A stretch of DNA of 51,576 bases from a virus (lineage: Duplodnaviria; Caudoviricetes), in the IMG/VR virus record IMGVR_UViG_3300038330_000010, positions 1 to 51,576 of that record. One strand, 5' to 3'. The position numbers and the translations under genes were made by a program. Of this stretch, positions 1 to 51,576 are shown piece after piece (within the stretch, counting starts at the first letter, position 1; each line of letters opens with the position of its first letter). The notes below the pieces were generated by a model, which had not been told where the DNA came from, searched no databases, and saw only the letters and a list, made by a program, of their open reading frames with translations.

Positions 1-520
1 ATCCCACAGGTTCATATCGTATCTGCCACCCAAGAAGTGCATCTGGTAGGACAGGGCAGTAACGGTAGATTCTTTCTCCCCCGCCATGAACACCGCAGCA
101 TTAGCCCGGATGATATCCCATATCTCATCCTGCTCGTTATCGAGCCTTCGTTTGACATGCGGATCCTCAGCATCAAAGCCGGACAGGGCTAGCATGTAGC
201 CAATGCTGGCTTCCTGACCCGTAACGCCATCTACCAGAAACTCGTCCTGTCTCCACACTTCTGTTTCTTCAGGCTTGAAGTTGCCAAAGTCCACATTAAG
301 CAGGGTGTTGCGCTCCAGTGTGTTCCTGAGCCGCCTGGTATACTTCGTTGCCTGTGGAGTCGTGTTGCTACCCAGCGCCACACGCAGATCCCGGTTACGA
401 CAGATAGCCCATGCTGGTAGGTCGTGAGTCATGGTAGTGGTTTTACCACCCCCAGGCGGGGTATTCAGAACCCCACGAATCCTCTCTTCCTTCTGTTGAG
501 CCTCGATCAGCCAGCTCATA
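1..520. repeat. Terminal direct repeat (circular assembly overlap), copy 1 of 51057-51576
   Basis: Manual alignment: 520 nt match with 18 substitutions, all between 127 and 393; 1-126 and 394-520 are identical. Confidence 0.97.
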
Positions 521-936
521 ACGATATGGGCCATCTCAACCTGCCAGGGGATGTGTCGCCGCCCCAGGTAGCGAGTGCGCCAATACCCAAATTCGTGATA
601 GGCATTCTTAGCCTGATCGCTCTGTAGGTCCTCAAACCGGGTAATGGGCGGCGGTATGCTCACAGTCATTAGGTCAGCGACCTTATGCTCAGCCGACTGC
701 TCGTACATACGGTTGCGTACCTGTAGGGGTGTAAGACTATCCCCTTCGATGTACCTGCCAGAGACAGCTTTCATCCACTTGCGTACGGTGGGACGACTCG
801 CCTCGATCTGTTGGCCCACTACATAGGGGTTACGCCCTAAGCGAACCTGGGAGTAGAACCACGTTTTCGCTTCCTCTGTGAAGTTCCCGCCCTTGTTCTT
901 AGGTTCATCAGGCGGATAGTCTTTGGTCTTGGCCAC
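1..936 (-). CDS. terL: Terminase large subunit, 5' part (continues across the junction into 49620-51576; about 790 aa in total)
   Basis: The frame of the 49620..51575 ORF stays open on the - strand from 519 up to a TGA at 991-993. GTG at 936 gives MAKTKDYPPDEPKNKGGNFTEEAKTWFYSQVRLGRNPYVVGQQIEASRPTVRKWMK...HIPWQVEMAHIVMSWLIEAQ...PPGGGKTT. The ORF track misses this part. Confidence 0.88.
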   Translation of the reverse strand, partial: MAKTKDYPPDEPKNKGGNFTEEAKTWFYSQVRLGRNPYVVGQQIEASRPTVRKWMKAVSGRYIEGDSLTPLQVRNRMYEQSAEHKVADLMTVSIPPPITRFEDLQSDQAKNAYHEFGYWRTRYLGRRHIPWQVEMAHIVMSWLIEAQQKEERIRGVLNTPPGGGKTTTMTHDLPAWAICRNRDLRVALGSNTTPQATKYTRRLRNTLERNTLLNVDFGNFKPEETEVWRQDEFLVDGVTGQEASIGYMLALSGFDAEDPHVKRRLDNEQDEIWDIIRANAAVFMAGEKESTVTALSYQMHFLGGRYDMNLWD

Positions 937-943
937 GAGAGAC

Positions 944-949
944 AGTATA
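944..949 (-). promoter_or_regulatory. Candidate -10 box (TATACT) for a leaderless terL/late transcript
   Basis: TATACT lies 7 nt upstream of GTG 936 with no SD; leaderless mRNAs are common in actinobacteria. The -35 match is weak. Confidence 0.45.
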
Positions 950-1036
950 GCTGCTTCCAAAACGGTTGGACAGGCCCAGAGGAGGCTACATCATAGCCTG
1001 CGTCCGCGCTCGCAAACATCCCCCGTGTCAAACAAT

Positions 1037-1068
1037 CGAACGTGTGTTCGCGTGCGAACGTGTGTTCG
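1037..1068. promoter_or_regulatory. Two tandem LexA (SOS/Cheo) box matches
   Basis: CGAACGTGTGTTCG at 1037-1050 and 1055-1068 matches the Gram-positive/actinobacterial CGAAC-N4-GTTCG consensus. Confidence 0.55.
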
Positions 1069-1374
1069 TGTGCGTGCGAGCGTGTGCGTGCGTGCGTGCG
1101 CTGCATCATATATGATGCACTATGTATGACGCGTGCGAGCGTGTGTGAATAGGCGCGTGTGCATGCGTGCATACGTATGCATATGTGTGCTATGTAATAG
1201 TGCGAGTGCTAACTATTGCAAGCATGTGCTAGCGTGCGAGTGTTAACAAAAGCTTGATGTTTTCTTGATGTTTGAGCGTGTGCGAGAGTGTAGTGTTGCG
1301 AGTGTTGACAAGTGAATAGCGAAAGCACACACGCACTCGCAGAATCTAATCACTTAGTGAAAGCGAGAACGAAT

Positions 1375-1680
1375 ATGGCTACTGTGAAAACGTTTGTGTC
1401 ACTCATCGAAGCATTCGTCGAAGATGCGACAAGCGTAACGCTCGAAGAAATCGTCGAAGTTTTCTTCAGCGAAACGCAAGGCGCAGATAAAGCGATCAGC
1501 GCAGATGAGCTTACGATTCTCGTAAGCGAAGTGACTGAACACGACTACAGCGCAAAGTCGATTCGAGCGAATCTTCGCAAGCATGCGTATCGTGATCAGT
1601 CGAAGATGCGAAACGCAACATGGCGAGTATCGCAAGAAGATGCTCTAGCTGAAGTCAAGCACTACTTGCGAGTAGCGTAA
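1375..1680 (+). CDS. Small HTH-like DNA-binding protein (paralog of 3043 and 10680), Pro-free
   Basis: ATG after GAAAGCGAG; ISADELTILV...AKSIRANLRKHAYRD...ATWRVS aligns with ITATELAALV...PKQVRAYLRKEFARD...SSWKIT of 3043..3264. Confidence 0.8.
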   Translation: MATVKTFVSLIEAFVEDATSVTLEEIVEVFFSETQGADKAISADELTILVSEVTEHDYSAKSIRANLRKHAYRDQSKMRNATWRVSQEDALAEVKHYLRVA

Positions 1681-1738
1681 GCACTCAGTAGCTTGTCAAC
1701 AAGCGAGAGCGTGTGTGCTTTCAAGAAAGCGAGCGAAG

Positions 1739-1918
1739 ATGCAAGAACTACGCAAGATATTCGCAGCGATCGAAGTAATCGATCAGCATGCGAGAGCGAT
1801 CGCAGCACTCGCAGATGAGCAGCAGCGAGCGCACGAGTACGAGTGCATGATGCAAGATCTTCACGATCTTCAGCGACATGTTGTCGATCAGATGCGATTG
1901 ATCGCGACAGCGAACTAG
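1739..1918 (+). CDS. Hypothetical 59-aa helical protein with no Pro or Gly
   Basis: ATG after the same GAAAGCGAG RBS variant; amphipathic helical sequence. Confidence 0.7.
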   Translation: MQELRKIFAAIEVIDQHARAIAALADEQQRAHEYECMMQDLHDLQRHVVDQMRLIATAN

Positions 1919-1924
1919 AGCGAG

Positions 1925-1957
1925 AGCGAGCGTGCGTGAAAGCGTGCGCTCGCTTTC
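1925..1957 (+). terminator. GAAA-tetraloop hairpin closing the CC/GG-free unit
   Basis: AGCGAGCGTGCGT-GAAA-GCGTGCGCTCGCT followed by TTC; U-tract is short. Confidence 0.6.
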
Positions 1958-2017
1958 GGGCGTCGTATGCCTCGTGGTGAGCACGGTCGGGCACCAGCGG
2001 CCTCGCGGTTGGCCCCC

Positions 2018-2193
2018 GGAGGTCCTCCCACCTCCACTGGCGGATCGGCGTCCCTACCCATGCCCCAGGACGGAGGAGGTCCTCCTACCGGTGGAGCGGC
2101 GTCCCTGGGGTGGGGCGGACCTCCAACCGGAAGATGGGCGTCCGTATGGAGTCCCACACCGAAGTGGAGGATCACGGAGGACCTCCAGACGCC
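2018..2193. repeat. Array of GG(A/C)GG-W-CCTCC palindromes interspersed with GGCGTCC
   Basis: Palindromes at 2018-2028, 2075-2085, 2114-2124 and 2176-2186; GGCGTCC at 2047, 2098 and 2137; inverted GACGCC at 2188. Confidence 0.85.
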
Positions 2194-2318
2194 CTTTCGG
2201 CCGCCTTTTGCCCGGAATACACGGCTAGGAGCCACATATAGACGGCTCAGGCTGGACAAAGGAAGGCCTACCTAAGATCGGAACCTCCTCAGAGTGCGAA
2301 AACAATCACAAGGACTGG

Positions 2319-2347
2319 TTGCATGAGGAGTTCCGGGTCGCTATCAT
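2319..2347 (+). promoter_or_regulatory. Sigma70/SigA-type early promoter
   Basis: TTGCAT-17 nt-TATCAT, upstream of the RBS and ATG at 2399. Confidence 0.7.
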
Positions 2348-2398
2348 GCATGCATGAGCTTCGCACGATGCGCGGATCCTACAGAAAGCGAGGACAAG

Positions 2399-2746
2399 AT
2401 GGCTCATAGTGGGGATTGTCCCCATCATCCAGATCGAGGCTGTGCCTGCTGGCAGAACCCGATCATCATAGGAGAGTCCTACGTTGTAGTGGCTCGATAC
2501 GGCAGAGAGCAGGATGCGAGGATGATAACGGAGACTCCGCCATCCTCTGAGAAATTCCAGAACAAGGAATATGAGATCCCTCGCTCCACAGAGCGCAGAA
2601 GGTCAGTCCGCAGAAACAGCGGTCAAGCCTTCAACAGCCTAGACAGAAGGGGGACAATCCGAGTCAACAATCGGTCGGTCAAGCAAGGCAAGCAGTGGAG
2701 AACATCAGGTCCTGAGCGATCTGTCCTCCGCTACACAACAGGATGA
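2399..2746 (+). CDS. Hypothetical early protein (basic C-terminus)
   Basis: AGAAAGCGAGG RBS before ATG 2399; ORF track. Confidence 0.65.
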   Translation: MAHSGDCPHHPDRGCACWQNPIIIGESYVVVARYGREQDARMITETPPSSEKFQNKEYEIPRSTERRRSVRRNSGQAFNSLDRRGTIRVNNRSVKQGKQWRTSGPERSVLRYTTG

Positions 2747-2759
2747 AAGAGGTCAAGCC

Positions 2760-2933
2760 GTGAACATCGACGAGGCAGATCCGTACAGCACCGTGTTGAG
2801 CCGCATCAACGCGGCATTTGAGTTCGGGAGGGACCACAACATGGAAATGAGTCAGAAGGAGTACGACATCCTCCGTGCTATCGCTCTGGAGGCTGAAGCT
2901 GCCGACCCAGATTTCGAGTGGATCATCCCGTAA
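2760..2933 (+). CDS. Hypothetical 57-aa acidic protein (below the ORF-track cutoff)
   Basis: GAAAGAGG RBS, GTG start, MNIDEADPYSTVLSRINAAFEFGRDHNM...DFEWIIP*. Confidence 0.65.
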   Translation: MNIDEADPYSTVLSRINAAFEFGRDHNMEMSQKEYDILRAIALEAEAADPDFEWIIP

Positions 2934-2937
2934 CCTC

Positions 2938-3000
2938 GTATGCAGAGTGGAGCGTCTGGAGAGTTAGCCATATTCGCTCTGGACGCTCCATCGTGCATAC
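2938..3000 (+). other. Long intergenic hairpin (possible RNase III or processing site)
   Basis: GTATGCA..TGGAGCGTCTGGAG / CTCTGGACGCTCCA..TGCATAC pair with G-U pairs. Confidence 0.6.
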
Positions 3001-3042
3001 CTCAACTCACCACATGAAGCCACTGAAAGGAGGTGAAACATA

Positions 3043-3264
3043 ATGGCAGCGAAGAAGCCAGCAGAGGTTCCGACGATCACCGCCACAGAGCTAGCCGCTC
3101 TCGTGGAGAGGGACCCGAAGCAGGTCCGTGCATATCTCCGCAAGGAGTTTGCAAGGGACCCGGAAGCGAAGGGTTCGTCGTGGAAGATCACCGCACAACT
3201 GCAGGAGCAGACGGTGAACCACTTCACGGCCCTGAACGAGCGCAAGGAAGCAAAGGCCTCCTGA
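3043..3264 (+). CDS. Small HTH-like DNA-binding protein
   Basis: Strong RBS GAAAGGAGGTG; TATELAALVERDPKQVRAYLRK helix-turn-helix pattern. Confidence 0.8.
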   Translation: MAAKKPAEVPTITATELAALVERDPKQVRAYLRKEFARDPEAKGSSWKITAQLQEQTVNHFTALNERKEAKAS

Positions 3265-3412
3265 CGTTCATCCACAACTGAAGTCCGCGTTCGTGCCTGA
3301 GAGGGAAAGTCCCTCAGTGAGGAAACACCATGTAACGGTGAACAGAGGTTGTGCCTACAAATCACAGTAGGCACTTCCTGTGTCCATTGACGCAAGAAAG
3401 GAGGTGAACCAA

Positions 3413-3682
3413 ATGCCAACAGGAGAACTACCAGATAGGGACGTCACTCCGTTTGCGGAGCTAACGTCCGTGATCACAAGGGACTGGCTAGTCCAGAACT
3501 CCCCAGAGGACATCGTGGCCTACACGAACGACTTTGGGATGGCACGGGACCTAGTCAGTGAGATGGCCATGAGCCTATCACTGTGTCCCGTCCACTTCAT
3601 CGACTGGGCCATCTGCTTCGACGATGAGGATCCTGAGTGTGGGCAGGTCCGAGCGATCTTTCCACAGAGCCACGACACATAG
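3413..3682 (+). CDS. Hypothetical protein with Cys/His cluster
   Basis: AGAAAGGAGGTG RBS; CPVH..C..C motif. Confidence 0.75.
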   Translation: MPTGELPDRDVTPFAELTSVITRDWLVQNSPEDIVAYTNDFGMARDLVSEMAMSLSLCPVHFIDWAICFDDEDPECGQVRAIFPQSHDT

Positions 3683-3690
3683 GAGGAGCC

Positions 3691-3918
3691 GTGAACAACG
3701 AGCCGACTCGCACATGGCCGTGCGAGAAATGCGGAGCAACCGTAGAGCGGTACAGAGGGCAGGATGACGTTTCCTGCTCCGAGTGCGGAACGCCTTACAA
3801 CTGCTTCGGACAGAGGTTGCGGGACGATTACCGTGACAACCCTTCCAACTATGACTCCGACATCGGAGACATGGAGGGATACGAGATGGAGATGCTCAGA
3901 AAGGAGCATGGTGAGTAA
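3691..3918 (+). CDS. Zn-ribbon protein
   Basis: AGGAGG RBS; CEKCG...CSECG. Confidence 0.75.
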   Translation: MNNEPTRTWPCEKCGATVERYRGQDDVSCSECGTPYNCFGQRLRDDYRDNPSNYDSDIGDMEGYEMEMLRKEHGE

Positions 3919-4195
3919 GGAATCGAAAGACCTGACCTACGAGCAGACGCAGGAACTCCTGCGAGCCCCGTGGAAGCGTGGCTATCTGACTCGGGACTTC
4001 CACTACAACGGCCTGCATCCCGCAGGGGAGCGAGTCACCTGGAAGACCTACCACAACGACACGGACTACATTTCCGTAAGGCTCTGGGGAGAAATCTCCG
4101 CAGACGGCAATTCCATGTACCCGATTGTGGAATTCACGGAAGTGCCAGAGTTGGTGCGTCCAGCTGAAACAGACGAGGATGGGAACTACCTATGA
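3908..4195 (+). CDS. Hypothetical protein
   Basis: AGAAAGGAG RBS; coupled to neighbouring ORFs. Confidence 0.7.
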   Translation: MVSKESKDLTYEQTQELLRAPWKRGYLTRDFHYNGLHPAGERVTWKTYHNDTDYISVRLWGEISADGNSMYPIVEFTEVPELVRPAETDEDGNYL

Positions 4196-4416
4196 AAAGG
4201 CACATGATGCCTGAGGGAAGTCTGAACCGCTATCCGTTAGCGGAACTGACAACCATCAGGACAACCAAGCACATGGGGCTCTATACCACAGAGGAGCTCC
4301 TGCTAATGACGGAGGTGATCGAGAACCTGAAGCGGGTCAAGCGGCAGCGTCTCCATGACGAGGCACAGGAGCGGAAGATTGCTCGGAAGCTCCGCAACAA
4401 GAAGGTCGAGGTGTAA
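4192..4416 (+). CDS. Hypothetical basic protein
   Basis: ATGA overlap with the upstream gene. Confidence 0.65.
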   Translation: MKRHMMPEGSLNRYPLAELTTIRTTKHMGLYTTEELLLMTEVIENLKRVKRQRLHDEAQERKIARKLRNKKVEV

Positions 4417-4418
4417 GG

Positions 4419-4631
4419 ATGCTTATCCTGATAGGGCACGACAAGAACGGAGCGTTCGCGGCCTACAAGCCGATGTCCGAAGTGGTCAAGCTGATCAAGG
4501 AAGACCCTGCGTTCACCGTGGGGTTAGTGGAATGCATGGAGGATATGGAGTTCAATCCAGACGACATCTCCCCTGCCCACTGGATGCAGTTGAGGAAGGA
4601 TATCCTGAACAGCATGAGGGCCAGCGCATGA
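4419..4631 (+). CDS. Hypothetical protein
   Basis: GAGGT RBS; tight packing. Confidence 0.65.
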   Translation: MLILIGHDKNGAFAAYKPMSEVVKLIKEDPAFTVGLVECMEDMEFNPDDISPAHWMQLRKDILNSMRASA

Positions 4632-4855
4632 GCGAGGACCTAACCCGTGAGTTTGTGGACTCAATCAAGGACATTGAGGACGAGTATGCGGATGCTCACC
4701 ATGATGGACACAGTTTGTGGATCACCTACGACCAGAGAGGGATAGTGAGCCTCGACGTTTGCGAGGAGCCTCCATTCAGCAATGATGGCGGGCTCCTGCA
4801 GATCAACCTGTCGGAGTTTTTCCAGTCCCTGTTGTATGTCCTAGAGGAGAGATAA
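4628..4855 (+). CDS. Hypothetical acidic protein
   Basis: ATGA overlap; MSEDLTREF start within the 4355..4855 ORF. Confidence 0.65.
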   Translation: MSEDLTREFVDSIKDIEDEYADAHHDGHSLWITYDQRGIVSLDVCEEPPFSNDGGLLQINLSEFFQSLLYVLEER

Positions 4856-5043
4856 TGGAATACGACCAAGCGACGGATGAGCGGACCTTCGACGATCTGC
4901 TCCTTCATCTGAAGAAGGCCGATGCCTTGATGAACCTAGCGTTCACCGCTACTGGCCTAGAACGCCTCAATGCGGAGCACAAGGCTCACGATCACGTGGT
5001 CAAGGCCTGGAACACAGCCGCTTACCTGCAAGAGCGCCAATGA
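4855..5043 (+). CDS. Hypothetical protein
   Basis: GAGGAG RBS, TAATG overlap. Confidence 0.65.
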   Translation: MEYDQATDERTFDDLLLHLKKADALMNLAFTATGLERLNAEHKAHDHVVKAWNTAAYLQERQ

Positions 5044-5187
5044 CGGAAGAGTCCTGAGTGCTTATGGACCCTACTACCAGCAGCCGTCTATGACCAGCGA
5101 TGGTTGGCTAGCAACTGGAATAGCAGCGTCCATAAACATTCGGAGACGGATGTTTAATTGGATAGGTACTATAGGAAAGGAGGTGAA

Positions 5188-5520
5188 ATGCCCCCAGAAA
5201 GGCCTCAGATCGTTGACGAGGAATACATGAGCCAAGCGATGGTTCAGATTTCATTCCGTTTGCCATTACGGCTCCGTATGAAACTGGACGCCTATTTGCA
5301 AGCCATGGACCGACCTGCAACTCAGCGGTCTGAGGAATCACAAGACTGGCCTAAGACACTACAGGCCACGATCAACAGAGGGTTGGAAGACTTTCTGGCC
5401 TCACATGTTCCGAAGAACAGATCAGGCCCAGATATGAAGCCAGCCCGACCAGCAATCAAAGCCAAGAAGAAGGAAAGACAGGAGGAAGAACAAATTGGCC
5501 GAGAAGTTGAAGGAGTTTGA
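5188..5520 (+). CDS. Putative ribbon-helix-helix regulator
   Basis: GAAAGGAGGTG RBS; MVQISFRLPLRLRMKLDAYL...LQATINRGLEDFL RHH-like pattern. Confidence 0.6.
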   Translation: MPPERPQIVDEEYMSQAMVQISFRLPLRLRMKLDAYLQAMDRPATQRSEESQDWPKTLQATINRGLEDFLASHVPKNRSGPDMKPARPAIKAKKKERQEEEQIGREVEGV

Positions 5521-5815
5521 GTTCACTCGGATGGGCAGGGGAAAGCCTGGATACTGGGAGAAGTTCCTGGATGGTAACATCTGGCAACTCGGTATCGAGG
5601 ATGCCCCCAACGGTAGTGCGAAGGACGTTGAGTCCATCAGAGGTAGCATCTCTGGTTATGTACGCCGCCAGCAAGAGGCGAACAATCCGAAGTTCGTAGA
5701 CATGGCTCTGCGGACTCAAATAGTGAGGGAATACGACGAGGACGGAGAGCCGTCAGAAGATCCAGCCGACAGCCTTCTGGTTGTCCAGCTGGTCGAAGCA
5801 CAGGACGAGGAGTAA
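5495..5815 (+). CDS. Hypothetical protein
   Basis: AGGAGG RBS, TTG start. Confidence 0.7.
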   Translation: MAEKLKEFEFTRMGRGKPGYWEKFLDGNIWQLGIEDAPNGSAKDVESIRGSISGYVRRQQEANNPKFVDMALRTQIVREYDEDGEPSEDPADSLLVVQLVEAQDEE

Positions 5816-5818
5816 GCA

Positions 5819-6004
5819 ATGGCCAAGACAGCAGAAACCACCACAACCATCGAGTTCAAGACCAAGAAGGCAACGAAGGGCACGGTTGTGTTCGAGGAGA
5901 TGCGGAACGACGACGAGCGGCCGCATACCTTCTACATGCTCAACCGTCTCCATGACGAGCTTGGCAGCCCAAGCCAGATCGTCATGACCATCGAGGTCGA
6001 CTGA
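5819..6004 (+). CDS. Hypothetical small protein
   Basis: GAGGAG RBS. Confidence 0.7.
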   Translation: MAKTAETTTTIEFKTKKATKGTVVFEEMRNDDERPHTFYMLNRLHDELGSPSQIVMTIEVD

Positions 6005-8001: not shown

Positions 8002-8381
8002 GCCTGGAGAACGTACCTGATCGTATCTGGTTCTTACTGATCGGTCTGGTCATATTCGCCATAACGTTGTGGCTATACCAGGGCTGGAACCGGGCTGAGA
8101 GGGTCCTTAACCGTGTCACAACGTTAATTACGGTCGAGAGCCCTCACTACTGCGGTACCTGCATGCTGACCAATTGGGAGTTCAGCCTGCCGGAGGATCA
8201 CTTTCCGCCATGGTTGCATAAGTCCGCAGACAATATGAGGCAGATGCCATACGGAACAGCGTACATTACAGACCATGAGTACCATCCCGTGTATCTGGTA
8301 GATATAGCCAAACTGACTCGGGATCCGGAGTCCTGGGAGCAGTATGGGCGCCATCTACATCTACGCTCCCCCAGGGTATGA
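7998..8381 (+). CDS. Membrane protein
   Basis: N-terminal TM helix IWFLLIGLVIFAITLWLY. Confidence 0.7.
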   Translation: MSLENVPDRIWFLLIGLVIFAITLWLYQGWNRAERVLNRVTTLITVESPHYCGTCMLTNWEFSLPEDHFPPWLHKSADNMRQMPYGTAYITDHEYHPVYLVDIAKLTRDPESWEQYGRHLHLRSPRV

Positions 8382-8803
8382 AACTTACGGCCGAACAGAG
8401 GGAGGCAGTTAGGCGTTTGCAGATGGAGCATCTAACCCCGACCTCATACCTGAAAATACTGGACACTGAAGCCTATATCGAGGGATTATGGCGTGAGTCT
8501 GCCGAGTGTGTTCAGGTATGCAAGGACTATCCAGATCAGTATAACCCGAACGAGTGGTTCCCTATGGATCAGGGCCCCAATAAAGCAGACCACGTCCCCA
8601 TGAAAGTGAGGGCCATTTGCAACGACTGTGAGGTACGTCTACCCTGCCTTGCTTATGCCATTCAGACTAGACAGGAGAACGGTGTATGGGGTGGGCGAAC
8701 AATCAAGTCGGTTCGAAGCATACGAACCCGATTGCTCGAGGCCTTAGCTCAGATGAACCAGACAGACAGGGGGCCTAGACAAGCAGGAAGCAAGCACAAC
8801 TAG
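8378..8803 (+). CDS. whiB: WhiB-family Fe-S transcription factor
   Basis: AEC...WFP...ICNDCEVRLPCLAYA...GVWGG; the family is characteristic of actinobacteria and their phages. Confidence 0.92.
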   Translation: MKLTAEQREAVRRLQMEHLTPTSYLKILDTEAYIEGLWRESAECVQVCKDYPDQYNPNEWFPMDQGPNKADHVPMKVRAICNDCEVRLPCLAYAIQTRQENGVWGGRTIKSVRSIRTRLLEALAQMNQTDRGPRQAGSKHN

Positions 8804-17148: not shown

Positions 17149-17993
17149 CCTTTAAGGTAGTAAGAGCCCACGACTTGACCTCATTGTGGGCCAAGAATGT
17201 ACGCCAGCATCTGTATCGGGAAGAGGTTGACCTGTATCTGGGTATCGGTACCAACCTCAATGACATGGTACTGAAGGCAGACTCTGCGGAGTACGACTTC
17301 AACCTGCAAGAGTTGTGGTTGAACAAGCAACGTTGGACCAGGCTGATTCGGGAATACATCGACCCGTATGAGTTGTCCAGGTTTGTCAAGAATAGCCACA
17401 TCATCTACAACGGTAAGGGAAAGAATGGAGTTGTCACCAATATGCATTTCCGTTCAGTCGACCGCCGAGCCGACCTCCGACGCCACAAGTGGGGCAACTG
17501 CTTACTGGCCGCTACGTTTAGAGGTACACCGAATTCCAGAGTGCCGCCAACACTTACACTTCACAGCCGAGTCTCATACAATGCCTATATGCTCGGTATG
17601 GATATGGGAGTGGCTCACGCAATTGCTCGGGAGATTGCCGACCCCGCCACTATTGCAATCCAATGGCATTTGGATGTCATGCAACTCCATTCCTTCAAGT
17701 GTCTGCCCTACCTGTATACACAACCAGACCTAATGGAGGTGCTAGAGGACAGGGATCATCTCACTGAGCTGGCTTTGCAGTTCCCTACCTGGAAGAGCAT
17801 CTCCCGTTGGTGGTGGAAGGTATTGCAGTTCGAGGATGAAGGCAAGACTGTAGCGGCTGAGTTGTACGGGCCCTTCAAGAGGATCCGCAGAAGGTACGAG
17901 GAGTATCAGCGTGGGATTACCGTGCCATCGGTACACATCTCGGAGCTGGACTTCAGCAAACTAGGAGATGGTTATAGTGCTAAGAGACCGTAA
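17145..17993 (+). CDS. Divergent thymidylate-synthase-fold protein (dCMP-type Asp)
   Basis: WGNCLLAATF (catalytic-Cys strand), LHSRVSYNAYMLGMD (R..+11 Asp), WHLDVMQLH. Confidence 0.65.
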   Translation: MTFKVVRAHDLTSLWAKNVRQHLYREEVDLYLGIGTNLNDMVLKADSAEYDFNLQELWLNKQRWTRLIREYIDPYELSRFVKNSHIIYNGKGKNGVVTNMHFRSVDRRADLRRHKWGNCLLAATFRGTPNSRVPPTLTLHSRVSYNAYMLGMDMGVAHAIAREIADPATIAIQWHLDVMQLHSFKCLPYLYTQPDLMEVLEDRDHLTELALQFPTWKSISRWWWKVLQFEDEGKTVAAELYGPFKRIRRRYEEYQRGITVPSVHISELDFSKLGDGYSAKRP

Positions 17994-18735
17994 GGATGTT
18001 GACCATCAGCTTCGCAAGAGGTTTATCCAGACAGGTGAGGTAGTCAACCGGGAAGAGTGGCAAGCCATGAGGGACGATCGTCCCATGACTGTCACCTATG
18101 AGATTGCCGACGTTGATCTGGAGATACCTGTACCCCTGGCCATTGATCTATGGCAGGACGTGTGCCAACCAAATCTCCCCTGGGCTGAGGATCACTTCAA
18201 GGAGCGAGTTGGGGGTGTACCCCTCAACCCGGGGGAGCAATACAAGAACTGGCCTTGGTATGAGCAAGGGGTAGAGGAACACAAAGGCACAGGTAAGTTC
18301 AGTCACACCTACATGGAGAGAATGTGGGGTGATGCAGCGGCCACACTGGATGGGGTAGTCAAGCTCCTGAGGGAAAGACCTATGACCCGCCAGGCATATT
18401 GCACAATATGGTGGCCAATAGATGTGATGAACTCCAACCTCAGTCGGCGTGTGCCATGTTCTCTCGGGTACCTGTTCCAGTTCAGACCAGAAACACAGTC
18501 CTTCGATATGTGGTACTACATGAGGTCGGTAGACTTCTATCGTTACCTGTGGGACGACATCTACATGGCCGGGCGCTTGCTTCAGTGGGTCAGGAGGAAG
18601 GCACACATCGAAGCGCCCATCGGTTCAGTCCACCTGAAGATAGCCAACCTCCACGTGTTTGCTGCCGAGCAGAGCAGACTGGAAGAGGAGTTCAAGACAG
18701 AGGAAAGGGATAGGTTGAACAATGCTTTCCGATAG
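17968..18735 (+). CDS. Thymidylate-synthase-fold dCMP (hydroxy)methylase-like enzyme
   Basis: TRQA, VPCSLGYLFQFR, YMRSVDFYRYLWDD (Asp at the E. coli ThyA N177 position), IANLHVF. Confidence 0.85.
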   Translation: MVIVLRDRKDVDHQLRKRFIQTGEVVNREEWQAMRDDRPMTVTYEIADVDLEIPVPLAIDLWQDVCQPNLPWAEDHFKERVGGVPLNPGEQYKNWPWYEQGVEEHKGTGKFSHTYMERMWGDAAATLDGVVKLLRERPMTRQAYCTIWWPIDVMNSNLSRRVPCSLGYLFQFRPETQSFDMWYYMRSVDFYRYLWDDIYMAGRLLQWVRRKAHIEAPIGSVHLKIANLHVFAAEQSRLEEEFKTEERDRLNNAFR

Positions 18736-19282
18736 CCATTTCATGGACGTGGCCGGGGTTATCTCCGACGCAGGCACATGCTCCCGGCTGCAGGTTGGGG
18801 CAGTGATCGTCAGGGATAGGCGCATCATCTCCACAGGATACAATGGTGCCCCTAAAGGTATGCCTCACTGTGACCACAGTAACCCAGATGATTTAAGGTT
18901 TACTACCATTATGGGCGGCTGTGTTGTGTCGGTACATGCTGAAGCCAATGCCATTTGCTATGCAGCCAAGACCGGGATAGCCACAGATAAGGCCAGTCTC
19001 TACACCACAGATGCACCGTGCCAGAAATGCGCGGAGTTGATCGTCAACGCCGGGATAATCGAGGTGATATATGGAAGAGAATACAGAATCCGTGACGGGC
19101 TCGATCTCCTTAAAGCAGCTAGGGTCCACGTTACGAGCATTGAGCAATCCAGCCTGCACTTTATGCCCCCTGCACCAGGACACGGACCGAGTGTGCATCC
19201 CAGTCAACAGTCCGACCCGAGCTTTGAAGAAGGATGGACAGCAGCTGCGGATGCTCATCGTCGGGGAGGCCCCAGGGTATAG
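18722..19282 (+). CDS. dCMP deaminase
   Basis: TCSRLQVGAVIV...GYNG...HAEANA...PCQKC; the C-terminal extension overlaps the polymerase gene. Confidence 0.93.
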   Translation: MLSDSHFMDVAGVISDAGTCSRLQVGAVIVRDRRIISTGYNGAPKGMPHCDHSNPDDLRFTTIMGGCVVSVHAEANAICYAAKTGIATDKASLYTTDAPCQKCAELIVNAGIIEVIYGREYRIRDGLDLLKAARVHVTSIEQSSLHFMPPAPGHGPSVHPSQQSDPSFEEGWTAAADAHRRGGPRV

Positions 19283-49339: not shown

Positions 49340-49630
49340 TCACGGTACGTTTATCCGCTGTTGAATCAATACCCGGACGTCAGCGGTGGCAGCCCCCACA
49401 ATCCCGAAGAGGCGGTCTGAATCCTTGCCAGTCAGAGACTTATGGGCCTCGTCAGAGGGGCTAAACACGTCCCCGGCCTCAAGGGGAAAGCCATTAGCGG
49501 TGGTTACGGTGCTATCGCCTAGAAAGATAGTGGCTGAGTGGTTATTCTTCAGTATATAGGACGGATACTGAGTGCCCTGAATCACTGTGGCTGAGGTAGT
49601 GACTGAGGTAACGAACTGTCTAGCGGCCAT
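49340..49630 (-). CDS. Small beta protein (capsid decoration-like)
   Basis: IFLGDSTVTTANGFPLEAG; start MAARQF at 49630. Confidence 0.65.
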   Translation of the reverse strand: MAARQFVTSVTTSATVIQGTQYPSYILKNNHSATIFLGDSTVTTANGFPLEAGDVFSPSDEAHKSLTGKDSDRLFGIVGAATADVRVLIQQRINVP

Positions 49631-51576
49631 TATTTCTGTCCTCGTTCCTTCTGCGCCGGGCCTCAGCGTGACTGATACCACGGCCCCCATCAGTGTCGGG
49701 TTTTGACCTATCTATGTAGGATTGCTGTGCTAACCGGGGAGGCATGGTGTCCTGGTATGGATGCTTGACCCCGTTGTAGCCTCCGCTGGTGGGGACTTTG
49801 AGAGTTTTCGGTATCTTGTACCTATTAGCCTCAAGGAACCAGTGTCCGTGAACCATATCATCCGTAGGACTATCTGGCCATTCAACAAGCTCAGCCTTGA
49901 ACTCATTGATCTTTGCCCGAGTCTTGAGGTCGTCACCGGAATACGGAAGGTCAACACGACCATCTCTATATCTGGGTCGGAGTACCTGGACACCATACTC
50001 CTCGTCCGCTTTCTTAGGCGTAGTCTCGTGGCCCTTAATATGCGTGGCATTTATCTTCATCCACTCCTGTACGAAGGTGTGCTGGAAGAGGTACCTCTGG
50101 GCGGCATTTTGCTCAACGATCCAGAGACCGATAGGCCACCCCATATCTCTCGACCTCTTCTGCCAGGTATCCAGAACTCCATGGTATGCCCTGTCCCTAG
50201 GGGAGTATGAGAGGAAGCTGTCCGCTGATAGCCTCGCTCGGATGATGTCAACGAGGAAATCTTCATCGGTGTTGTCATTCCATATCCACCACTGTATTGA
50301 CCACCAGTTTACTGCGCTCGGATCCACCGTAGCTATGGAGAAACAGTCCTCTTTCGGGGTAGTACCGTCGTCTGCCTGCTCACTGAGGTGCTTGGGAATC
50401 TGTAGCAAGGTACGGTTGTAGTTAAAGCAGCCGGGGTACAGGATCCCATCCTGACCTACACCCCCTGTCAACCAGACCTCTTGAATCAAGTTGTCCTCTG
50501 TGGACTCGTCTGCCTGGTTATAGGTCAGTTCATATTTCCTGGCATTAGCGTTCTTAGCCCGCATGAGGTCGTAGAACTTGAAGCGGAGCGGATCGAGCAG
50601 ACAGTCTATGTGGTCCGCCTGCTTCATAGAGGACAGATTGTGGCATTTTGAGTCGTCGTGGGCGGGGAACTTAACGTACTTGTAGATCCTCTGGCGTATA
50701 CGAACAGGCTGTACGTAGCCATCTTCATCAGGAGTGAGGTTCTCGACTGTCTGTAGGTCAGAGCTGTCTATGCCGTAGTTGTCTACCAGCTCCTTAGCCA
50801 GCTCCTCCCTAATCTCTTCCATCTGCTCAGCGTCCATATTAGGACTGATGCGTGCGGCCAGAAGCTCGTCAAAGTCGTCGTCTGTGGCGAAGGTCATATC
50901 TCGACAGTGACGAAACAGGTCATATTTGCCGAATCTTGTTCCAATCAGCCCAATCATACCCCCCGGTTCAGCCCTAGATACGGCATACTCTTCCCACCAC
51001 TCTGCGAGGTCGTCACGCTTTTCCGGCGCATCGGAGTTCTTGTCGTCCACCAGGTCATCCCACAGGTTCATATCGTATCTGCCACCCAAGAAGTGCATCT
51101 GGTAGGACAGGGCAGTAACGGTAGATTCTTTCTCCCCCGCCATGAACACCGCAGCATTAGCCCGGATGATATCCCATATCTCGTCCTGCTCGTTGTCGAG
51201 CCTGCGTTTGACATGCGGATCCTCAGCATCAAACCCGGACAGGGCTAGCATGTAGCCAATGCTGGCTTCCTGTCCAGTGACCCCATCGACCAGAAACTCG
51301 TCCTGTCTCCACACCTCTGTTTCTTCAGGCTTGAAGTTGCCAAAGTCCACATTGAGCAGGGTGTTGCGTTCTAAGGTGTTTCTGAGCCGCCTGGTATACT
51401 TCGTTGCCTGTGGGGTCGTGTTGCTACCCAGCGCCACACGCAGATCCCTGTTACGACAGATAGCCCATGCTGGTAGGTCGTGAGTCATGGTAGTGGTTTT
51501 ACCACCCCCAGGCGGGGTATTCAGAACCCCACGAATCCTCTCTTCCTTCTGTTGAGCCTCGATCAGCCAGCTCATA
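49620..51576 (-). CDS. terL: Terminase large subunit, 3' part
   Basis: PPGGGKTT Walker A, GGRYD..LWDD Walker B, IGTRF, VDPS, VEQNAAQ, TDDMV nuclease acidic residues. Confidence 0.93.
   Translation of the reverse strand, partial: MSWLIEAQQKEERIRGVLNTPPGGGKTTTMTHDLPAWAICRNRDLRVALGSNTTPQATKYTRRLRNTLERNTLLNVDFGNFKPEETEVWRQDEFLVDGVTGQEASIGYMLALSGFDAEDPHVKRRLDNEQDEIWDIIRANAAVFMAGEKESTVTALSYQMHFLGGRYDMNLWDDLVDDKNSDAPEKRDDLAEWWEEYAVSRAEPGGMIGLIGTRFGKYDLFRHCRDMTFATDDDFDELLAARISPNMDAEQMEEIREELAKELVDNYGIDSSDLQTVENLTPDEDGYVQPVRIRQRIYKYVKFPAHDDSKCHNLSSMKQADHIDCLLDPLRFKFYDLMRAKNANARKYELTYNQADESTEDNLIQEVWLTGGVGQDGILYPGCFNYNRTLLQIPKHLSEQADDGTTPKEDCFSIATVDPSAVNWWSIQWWIWNDNTDEDFLVDIIRARLSADSFLSYSPRDRAYHGVLDTWQKRSRDMGWPIGLWIVEQNAAQRYLFQHTFVQEWMKINATHIKGHETTPKKADEEYGVQVLRPRYRDGRVDLPYSGDDLKTRAKINEFKAELVEWPDSPTDDMVHGHWFLEANRYKIPKTLKVPTSGGYNGVKHPYQDTMPPRLAQQSYIDRSKPDTDGGRGISHAEARRRRNEDRNNGR
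51057..51576. repeat. Terminal direct repeat, copy 2
   Basis: Matches 1-520. Confidence 0.97.

Follow-up and report, generated by a model that had tools for sequence, protein, structure and literature searches.

The leading ~850 bp of phage T7 DNA enters the cell without transcription, and the early promoters and gene 0.3 come first; we know of no dinucleotide exclusion in T7. A chlorovirus encodes the frequent-cutting nickase Nt.CviPII together with a methyltransferase; this virus-borne nuclease has a specificity of CC plus one base (CCD) and acts on one strand. Phage T5, according to the available text of one report, is cut by EcoRI and targeted by CRISPR systems only in its first-step-transfer region; the host-DNA-degrading function of T5 is hypothesised to spare that region since it is free of sites, and the injection stop signal is full of repeats, inverted repeats and palindromes (10.1101/866236). 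The escape of T5 DNA from A1 is still described as an open question in the available part of a later source (10.64898/2026.04.02.716235). The accessible text on LUZ24 places its direct terminal repeats between the terminase operon and the early genes (PMC3517423), and that on Pseudomonas phages targeted by type I-F CRISPR-Cas reports a genome-wide depletion of CC, the protospacer adjacent motif (PAM) (PMC12174588). The locus compared with these systems here is found in IMG/VR virus record IMGVR_UViG_3300038330_000010 (Duplodnaviria; Caudoviricetes); its 51,576 nt, analysed whole, are called the window. Close to the start of the window lies a short segment which almost lacks the dinucleotides CC and GG, referred to below as the desert.

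The desert occupies positions 1025-1957 and is not assigned to a strand. A direct count of these 933 nt gives no CC and four GG. Base composition is A256 C195 G272 T210 (50% G+C), for which mononucleotide frequencies predict ~41 CC and ~79 GG (~121 CC+GG for a 935-nt segment). The four GG, at 1152, 1377, 1480 and 1622, each read GGC; three are forced by coding, namely an ATG-GCT junction (1377), a Gly GGC codon (1480) and a Trp TGG codon followed by C (1622), and the one at 1152 is non-coding. Both edges are sharp: a C-run stops at 1024 and GGG begins at 1958. AA (70) and TT (36) are tolerated, and GC (103) and CG (97) are raised. The original prediction, made from the letters of the window, had claimed the zero and four counts, the GGC context, the coding origin of three GG, the sharp boundaries and the tolerance of TT and AA, and the recount agrees with it on all of these. 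In 933-nt windows slid along the genome the median is 136 CC+GG and the 1st percentile 57; the lowest value beyond the first 3 kb is 112, against four in the desert. Of all the stretches of the genome without CC or GG, the five longest (336, 225, 142, 129 and 103 nt) fall within the desert, and the longest outside it is 38 nt. Four physical or mutational causes were rejected, namely avoidance of ultraviolet dimers, Z-DNA, duplex stability and deamination bias: AA and TT are tolerated, the steps that replace GG/CC are the more stable GC/CG, and G+C is held at 50% with GC and CG raised. Open-access literature text yielded no earlier description of a region-specific dinucleotide desert.

Two genes lie in the desert: gene 1 (1375-1680) and gene 2 (1739-1918), both on the + strand. 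Recoding with the codon usage of the genome predicts 31 +/- 4.3 CC+GG in gene 1, where three are observed, and 13 +/- 3.1 in gene 2, where there are none. The avoidance extends to the junctions between codons: gene 1 has one CC/GG junction where synonymous permutation gives 12.8 +/- 2.35, and gene 2 has none where it gives 5.0 +/- 1.4 (in each case 0 of 2000 permutations is as low). The two proteins, 160 residues together, contain no Pro, one Gly and one Trp; five long genes of the same phage have 4.7% Pro, 6.8% Gly and 2.5% Trp. Selection in the desert thus acts on the nucleic acid and is not codon bias, because CC and GG are avoided at codon junctions too and the proteins, nearly without Pro, Gly and Trp, have been reshaped by it. 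This is what had been proposed, and the proposed reach of the depletion over non-coding DNA, both open reading frames, the ribosome-binding sites and the closing hairpin was likewise found.

Relatives were found through the N-terminal part of the large terminase, whose gene lies to the left of the desert; 51 loci came from viral and metagenome contigs, and the 41 with at least 600 nt upstream of the terminase match represent 21 lineages. For 19 of these 21, a scan of the whole locus puts the segment poorest in CC/GG at 0-1000 nt upstream of the terminase gene, so that the desert is syntenic. Observed/expected ratios are at most 0.5 in seventeen lineage deserts, and ten deserts of at least 400 nt have ratios of at most 0.1; examples are lineage L007 (942 nt, 1 against 109 expected), L014 (842 nt, 2 against 115) and one of 669 nt (1 against 89). 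The exclusion is present in lineages of 37-55% G+C. Desert length is 400-940 nt, reaching 1.5 kb, with only partial depletion, in low-G+C relatives. Thirteen high-G+C deserts (the window and 12 loci) were compared in more depth. Their non-coding upstream parts contain no CC (~141 expected) and 14 GG (~291 expected), ten of which belong to L015; their gene 1 sequences contain no CC (~162 expected) and 44 GG (~225 expected). With the 21 GG of L015 excluded, in many of the listed gene 1 contexts the GG belongs to a TGG with C or G next to it, the pattern that Trp and Trp-Gly codons would produce. Twelve of the 13 deserts have no CC at all, and L046 holds one. The module has a common build: a left-edge motif, 175-350 nt of non-coding DNA, a small conserved gene, an optional and unrelated second gene, and a terminator-like hairpin. 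One contig (L047) starts 14 nt beyond its desert; this was considered as a physical end and rejected as an ordinary contig break, because the sister contig L029 continues through the terminator. Neither DNA similarity to 900-2100 nor terminase protein similarity was found among 50,697 phage records, and a terminase profile found nothing in GTDB genomes, hence no prophage relatives and no host by that route.

The two dinucleotides are not excluded over exactly the same stretch. On the + strand of the window the CC-free zone is 1024-1970 and the GG-poor zone, which equals the CC-poor zone of the - strand, is 985-1958. The left flank (985-1024, + strand) lacks GG, has CC and ends in a C5 run at 1020-1024; the right flank (1958-1970, + strand) has GGG and lacks CC, the first + strand CC beginning just after position 1970. 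Most lineages likewise have a GG-free zone that begins ~40 nt to the left of the CC-free zone. In L011 the GG-free zone extends 317 nt past the CC-free zone, and in L001 149 nt past it, across genes that contain CC. The desert of L015 (684 nt) shows the opposite, with no CC against 21 GG, ten of these in non-coding DNA. C-rich tracts without GG border the deserts on the left in L001 and L046 and on the right in L008, L014, L034 and L046. The left tracts of L001 (5680-5800) and L046 (90 nt left of the desert) are ~65-120 nt long, with many CC and no GG, and sit between the conserved left-edge motif and the desert. The exclusion is therefore separable by strand; the equal depletion of a word and its reverse complement that is expected for double-strand targets was not found. 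Since a double-strand target cannot distinguish CC from GG, the avoided feature would be read on one strand or on RNA.

A conserved motif anchors the module on the left, and the terminator-like hairpin anchors it on the right. The motif, CATCCCCC followed directly by GTGTCAAAC, lies at 1016-1031 (+ strand), starting in the left flank; it is conserved at the desert edge in the window and in L007, L008, L011, L014, L018, L020, L034, L038 and L046. An exact search with the 46-nt left edge found no further copies in viral contigs. The non-coding upstream part (1025-1374, + strand) consists of GT/GC-rich low-complexity repeats (families D1-D3). It has no CC (11.0 expected) and one GG (33.9 expected), three copies of the motif TGCGAGTG(T/C)T(G/A)AC (at 1193, 1227 and 1289) and an 18-nt palindrome near 1099-1120. 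A Shine-Dalgarno-like ribosome-binding motif, GAAAGCGAG, is free of GG; it reads as AAGGAG with the GG split by C. On their sense strand the 13 deserts together contain 66 copies of the element AGCGAG and seven of its complement. The longer AAGCGAG gives 31 against four on the early-sense strand of the same deserts, and copies of both far outnumber the genes that require a ribosome-binding site. The hairpin (I7, 1921-1958, + strand), which had been predicted to close the unit, has arms at 1921-1932 and 1947-1958 (12 nt, 92% complementary). Comparable hairpins close the deserts of L007, L015 (there followed by T6), L020 and L037. A sigma-70 promoter and terminator scan gave one promoter-like and one terminator-like site, the same as in shuffled sequences, and placed no early promoters.

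Gene 1 encodes 101 aa, all-helical with a helix-turn-helix (HTH)-like core, and is the conserved first early gene of the clade. The HTH assignment is putative, resting on the pattern of alignment A2 with no match to a curated HTH family, of the sigma-70 region 4 or resolvase type for instance; the residues invariant in A2 are R64, A65, L67, R68, R73 and W83. The family has 163 database relatives, nearly all without names. Some carry source names such as resolvase or IS30- or CsgD-type HTH, and PF08281 is given for one of the 120 listed. The gene 1 proteins of the related phages are 21-37% identical to that of the window. The window protein itself had no match in Pfam, PHROG or PDB, the PDB profile search giving only chance matches, and as a single query it found none among viral contigs. 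Scores in Atlas were at most 0.86, and EF-hand-like helical look-alikes fell under the bar, so that no function was taken from it. A paralogue of the gene 1 core, also in alignment A2, lies beyond the desert at 3043-3264 (+ strand) and has normal Pro and Gly and normal CC/GG. Gene 2 encodes 59 aa without Pro, Gly or Trp. Its counterpart is not recognised in relatives, which have other small open reading frames or a membrane peptide at the same place; a family search found none, with a NolB match at chance level only.

Gene 1 is bracketed by an inverted repeat (I1) with a 20-nt 5' arm at 1321-1340 that is 95% complementary to the 3' arm at 1703-1722 (both + strand). The arms pair in the predicted minimum-energy and centroid RNA folds (z -2.69). 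When the 80 nt before gene 1 are paired with the 80 nt after it, the duplex is exceptional in 11 of 12 lineages, where its energy is attained by 0 of 200 shuffles; in L037 it is attained by six of 200. The sequences of the flanking repeats differ by lineage with pairing kept, at duplex energies of -38 to -71 kcal/mol. RNA contigs start and stop at this stem. Such a stem suggests that the gene 1 mRNA is processed by an RNase III-type enzyme or stabilised.

Directly behind the module lies the densest CC/GG stretch of the genome (1971-2300, no strand), here called the oasis. Positions 1971-2270 hold 83 CC+GG, the top value among all 300-nt windows (genome mean 44.2 per 300 nt). The oasis is made of three direct repeats GG(A/C)GG(T/A)CCTCC...GGCGTCC and an inverted partial copy; its repeat families are D5, D8, I2, I3, I8 and I12, and GGAGGTCCTCC...GGCGTCC recurs in it in direct and in inverted orientation. 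Similar blocks, each with repeats of its own, are present in relatives. The oasis was considered as a structured RNA and this found no support (fold z -1.28); Rfam searched with 900-2500 gave only eukaryotic families at chance level.

Sequencing runs were represented by Logan contigs aligned to 1-6000, in which gaps between contigs do not prove absence. The desert stretch is present in five DNA runs from soil and mine drainage, and in part in metatranscriptome runs. A contig of an independent DNA run (179-1807) crosses the left edge, and another DNA contig (1792-3023), which overlaps it by 16 nt, contains the right edge. The risk that the block is chimeric or contaminant DNA, raised with the original prediction, is thus unlikely. 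Cover by RNA-library contigs is best over gene 1, to which three runs contribute (1318-1711 in run X6, 1318-1535 and 1350-1624; depths 6.6-29), and its RNA is abundant. Other RNA contigs cover 1693-1843, 1748-1970, the paralogue (3013-3286, 3043-3204 and 3074-3217, again in three runs) and a few other early genes. In the three RNA-library runs no contig covers the terminase gene, 1025-1317 or 2001-3000, with the same caution about gaps, and RNA-library cover ends by 1970. Two of the RNA contigs begin together at 1318, where the flanking stem has its foot; this position is read as a processing site and not as a transcription start because there is no -10 element upstream. This shared start hints weakly at processing, and the end of cover by 1970 hints weakly at termination.

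One RNA-library contig of run X7 (260 nt, depth 4.1) runs from 1748 to 1970 and continues from 988 to 1024, with no shared letters at the joint. The resulting unit, 988-1970 (983 nt), is approximately the union of the CC-free and GG-poor zones of the + strand. The joint was seen in this contig only, and the DNA run contigs are without it. Depth of the DNA contig over the desert is 12.5 against 9.3-11.7, which fits one or two copies. The joint could stem from tandem DNA copies or a circle (for example a terminal repeat joined end to end), from circular RNA, or from jumping of reverse transcriptase; under each of the three sources the desert is a discrete unit, joined head to tail from 988 to 1970. 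Three relatives carry the IMG/VR label 'direct terminal repeats', and their contig ends are placed away from the desert.

The record is a circularly closed metagenome assembly of ~51 kb, as its ends (1-520 and 51057-51576) overlap by 520 nt, with 18 mismatches, within the terminase gene. Two strain variants were probably merged at closure, leaving the terminase pieces one base out of frame where the contig ends. These pieces, both on the - strand, are the N-terminal part (1-960; phrog_38, E 1.6e-17), which is the first gene of the structural set, and its continuation (49620-51575; phrog_38, E 4.2e-31). The terminase has an N-terminal HTH-like extension. The structural genes occupy the - strand from 51575 to 25608 and include the major head protein, which is distantly similar (<30% identity) to a set of records that includes Bruynoghevirus. 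A transglycosylase-domain protein adjoins a protein of 1832 aa in the virion gene set; we take these to be podovirus ejection proteins. No tape-measure or sheath protein was recognised among the structural genes. The early and replication genes lie on the + strand at 1375-25160 and encode a primase-helicase, a helicase and DNA polymerase I; others on this strand encode dCMP deaminase, a PD-(D/E)XK nuclease, AAA_24 and DUF669. This early set opens with the desert and diverges from the terminase gene. A weak thymidylate-synthase-like protein (28 bits) and the dCMP deaminase are encoded at 17968-19282, just upstream of the DNA polymerase gene; the pair could serve ordinary thymidylate (dTMP) supply or a base-modification pathway. 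A WhiB-family regulator gene lies at 8378-8800 (PF02467, 47 bits). The nearest relatives of the polymerase and primase are in phages of Streptomyces, Gordonia and Microbacterium, and no cultured phage is close (polymerase at most 37% identity). WhiB, as the chief clue, and these distant replication-gene relatives together suggest an actinobacterial host.

The reading that we favour, at a probability of about 0.4, is that the desert is a first-exposed, leading module kept free of CC against a CC-acting activity which reads strands. It is probably an immediate-early module, and probably a terminal one, flanked by the terminase gene on one side and by the other early genes on the other. Its location and anchored edges, together with the terminator, the adjoining repeat block and the high level of gene 1 RNA, fit a first-exposed module of the T5/T7 kind. 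Each DNA strand would have been purged of CC, which on one strand would be seen as the lack of both CC and GG. Exposure and expression in the cell would begin with this module, and if it contained CC the activity, reading one strand or RNA at a time, would cut it, stop it or silence it ahead of the making of gene 1. The remainder of the genome, with normal CC/GG, would either not yet be inside or already be safe, and the oasis behind the terminator may be a stop or hand-over point, as in the two-step transfer of T5. What we infer here is the order of entry, the position of the genome ends, what the oasis does, and that a CC-acting factor exists at all, along with its nature. We think the factor more likely to be phage-borne or universal than to be a particular host restriction enzyme, because the exclusion is strand-separable and stays constant in lineages of 37-55% G+C. 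The LUZ24 repeats sit between the terminase operon and the early genes, which is also the position of the module, as of LUZ24/T7-type direct terminal repeats; this makes it plausible that the genome has an end at or in the desert. The original prediction had taken the block for first-entering or first-transcribed DNA purged of a CC/GG-containing restriction site or PAM. This interpretation is supported in part, by the nucleotide-level purge, the place at the start of the early + strand set, the gene 1 RNA and the syntenic deserts in relatives for which it had asked; the named sites and PAMs, discussed below, find no support.

The likenesses to described systems are partial. As in T5, so far as the available texts describe it, a small leading module with its own early genes, one for a DNA-binding protein (a putative one here), is followed by a region rich in repeats and palindromes. 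The T5 module differs in being ~10 kb long with 17 genes, and in being without particular sites rather than without a dinucleotide; its stop signal, a cis-acting element at which the transfer of DNA pauses, is inside the repeat and has DnaA boxes. Two-step transfer and a terminal repeat are demonstrated in T5 and proposed here. The T5-type pre-early genes A1 (host DNA degradation) and A2 (DNA binding), which T5 needs for its second step, have no recognised counterparts in the module, whose HTH-like 101-aa protein and 59-aa protein match no family; family searches gave no A1-like phosphatase or nuclease there, and a direct comparison with A2 was not made. The likeness to T7 consists in a leading piece of 0.5-1 kb, a podovirus-like virion with a transglycosylase-bearing internal protein, and a first gene that is expressed ahead of the others; the rest of T7 is, however, pulled in by transcription, and no terminator follows its first gene, whereas the present module ends in a hairpin. 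LUZ24-like phages (Bruynoghevirus; phage tf), in the text available on them, share the two convergent gene sets and have repeats of 184-186 bp in a divergent non-coding region. They differ in that their small terminase subunit is separate and that their DNA carries strand-specific nicks, located at a consensus of 9 nt.

A number of observations weigh against the first-exposed module. The data that bear on genome ends and on the order of entry are contigs, which cannot show ends. A pull-in driven by transcription, in the manner of T7, would be impeded by the terminator with which the module ends. No nuclease or other CC-reading protein was identified in the genome, where one virion protein has a below-threshold HNH/EndoVII match (E 0.016). 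Low-G+C relatives, apparently marine, show only partial depletion (observed/expected 0.3-0.7), and L006, a remote relative with 26% terminase identity, has no desert. In L017 the gene 1 homologue is 2.6 kb from the terminase and has 24 CC on its sense strand, with a desert of just 175 nt. This short desert lies in front of the gene 1 homologue; in the L017 lineage (also L039 and L041; 1900-5000) extra genes of normal composition separate the homologue from the terminase. LUZ24 has no desert, and its ends are CC/GG-rich (36 CC and 29 GG in the first 200 nt, against 17 and 14 expected), so the desert would be a speciality of this clade. The CC/GG-enriched LUZ24 terminal repeats (L052/L053) are the opposite of a desert and resemble the oasis. 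Lastly, the desert is not the most restriction-proof DNA of the genome: CGCG occurs at 6.1 per kb in the deserts of 12 lineages and at 0.42 per kb outside them. This ~15-fold difference amounts to a second, reciprocal compositional rule across the genomes of the clade; in six loci CGCG is absent outside the desert where 4-12 are expected.

The first alternative turns the argument around. The desert would be a terminal repeat, and its emptiness itself the signal for a phage enzyme that recognises only CC, on one strand. The enzyme may make the ends, prime, or degrade host DNA, and a strip of 0.5-1 kb bounded by C-runs and followed by a site-dense block would define the ends or shelter the first-expressed genes, with a specificity written as absence throughout the clade. 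We hold this possible, if on the unlikely side. Little different, and in our judgement unlikely, is the explanation that a terminal repeat at 988-1970 is kept site-free for the phage's own CC-specific terminase, nickase or primase. A terminase or nickase would make staggered cuts, or a primase that finds no sites in the repeat would leave it as single-stranded 3' tails for concatemer annealing, with the C-runs at the 5' edge of each strand's zone as working sites. Such runs are present 5' of both zones (CCCCC at 1020-1024 on the + strand, CCC at 1960-1958 on the - strand), and the joint without shared letters bounds a unit that nearly equals the union of the two strands' CC-free zones. It comes, however, from one low-depth RNA-library contig and is absent from the DNA run contigs; contig depths neither show nor exclude a two-fold copy, and a concatemer of T7 type, having a single copy of the repeat, would not yield it. 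The LUZ24 repeats occupy the equivalent place but are CC/GG-rich. A phage-borne enzyme accounts for the same exclusion across lineages of 37-55% G+C, and the variation in length (400-940 nt) is like that of repeats; against this, L015 relaxes one strand. The HTH-like extension of the terminase and the repeat array adjoining the unit may also be counted in favour. We know of no terminase or primase with dinucleotide specificity, and no methyltransferase or CC-type nickase like Nt.CviPII was found in this genome; the chlorovirus, which has such a nickase, differs also in protecting its own DNA by methylation.

It is distinctly unlikely that the exclusion is a design at the RNA level, in which transcripts are free of CC against Rho loading or a CC-cutting ribonuclease, and free of GG against Shine-Dalgarno-like or structure-forming runs. 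The joint would then mark the RNA ends, 988 and 1970, brought together by template switching or by circularisation of RNA. Much of the strand evidence suits this: the zones separate by strand, the + strand zone ends at the last base before the first CC, where RNA-library cover also ends, and the C-rich GG-free tracts at the flanks look like Rho loading sites. So do the pairing of the gene 1 flanks in 11 of 12 lineages with two RNA contigs starting at the stem foot (1318), the sense-strand enrichment of AGCGAG (66 against 7) and the GG-free ribosome-binding motif. The difficulty is that 1025-1317 is purged like the genes, yet no RNA contig lies on it, and that 988-1024 (37 nt) contains CC, yet survives in the joint contig. 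Avoidance of GG on the sense strand would require antisense transcripts, for which nothing speaks. Rho also binds UC dinucleotides, and UC remains in the desert.

The explanation of the original prediction, classical avoidance of host restriction sites (GGWCC, CCGG, CCWGG), of the Ssp CCA motif or of NGG/CC PAMs in first-injected DNA, is improbable. It draws on the position of the module and the precedents of T5 and T7, and a cost paid for each dinucleotide suits a PAM; CC is the type I-F PAM, and the available text reports its genome-wide depletion in Pseudomonas phages (PMC12174588). Common to PAM or restriction-site avoidance and the desert is selection against a very short sequence required by a defence. 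The former, as described in the text available, is mild, genome-wide and strand-symmetric, and the desert is near-absolute, confined to 0.4-0.9 kb, anchored and strand-separable. Although GGCC, CCGG, CCWGG and GGWCC are mildly rare in the rest of the genome (ratios 0.64-0.83), restriction sites and PAMs are double- or either-strand targets, and deserts exist with only CC (L015) or only GG (L011, L001) excluded. Few changes would remove sites; here ~120 dinucleotides and the Pro and Gly codons are gone. The exclusion is also the same despite very different G+C among lineages. Palindromes avoided in the rest of the genome are tolerated in the desert, the reverse of what is expected of exposed DNA that is restriction-proofed. 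The rest of the genome avoids CGCG (18 observed, 69 expected), CGATCG (1 against 9.5) and several G+C-rich hexamer palindromes; the desert carries four CGCG and two CGATCG, and the remaining 48.8 kb one CGATCG. GATC, TCGA and GCATGC occur in the desert too. To our knowledge, CC-PAM systems are not the rule in Actinobacteria, the likely hosts.

A block without function, owed to mutational bias, a recent foreign cassette or an assembly artefact, would account for sharp compositional edges, low-complexity GT/GC repeats and a metagenome assembly whose ends overlap with 18 mismatches, and is very improbable: diverged sequences have deserts at the same place in 19 of 21 lineages, zero CC in 12 of 13 high-G+C deserts requires selection, 50% G+C with GC at 103 and CG at 97 is unlike deamination bias, DNA contigs of an independent run cover both edges, and gene 1 identities of just 21-37% between relatives and the window oppose one recent transfer. 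The readings that assign a function are not mutually exclusive with the one that we favour; the T5 terminal repeat is itself first-step DNA.

Avoidance of short sequences by phages is normally weak, genome-wide and symmetric. Here a dinucleotide is almost completely excluded from one anchored module, and the exclusion has reshaped two proteins, with no Pro and almost no Gly, as well as the ribosome-binding sites; it recurs in about twenty diverged lineages. It implies that CC is read on single strands by a strong activity, either at the very outset of infection or at the genome's ends. If the activity belongs to a defence, the module would represent a general way to hide first-exposed DNA. If it belongs to an enzyme of the phage, the desert would explain how a near-unspecific nuclease or primase can be used safely, and would bear on how the first-transferred DNA of T5 escapes that phage's own degradation of host DNA. 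In either case the module may serve as a simple sequence signature for locating the leading end of the genomes of uncultured phages.

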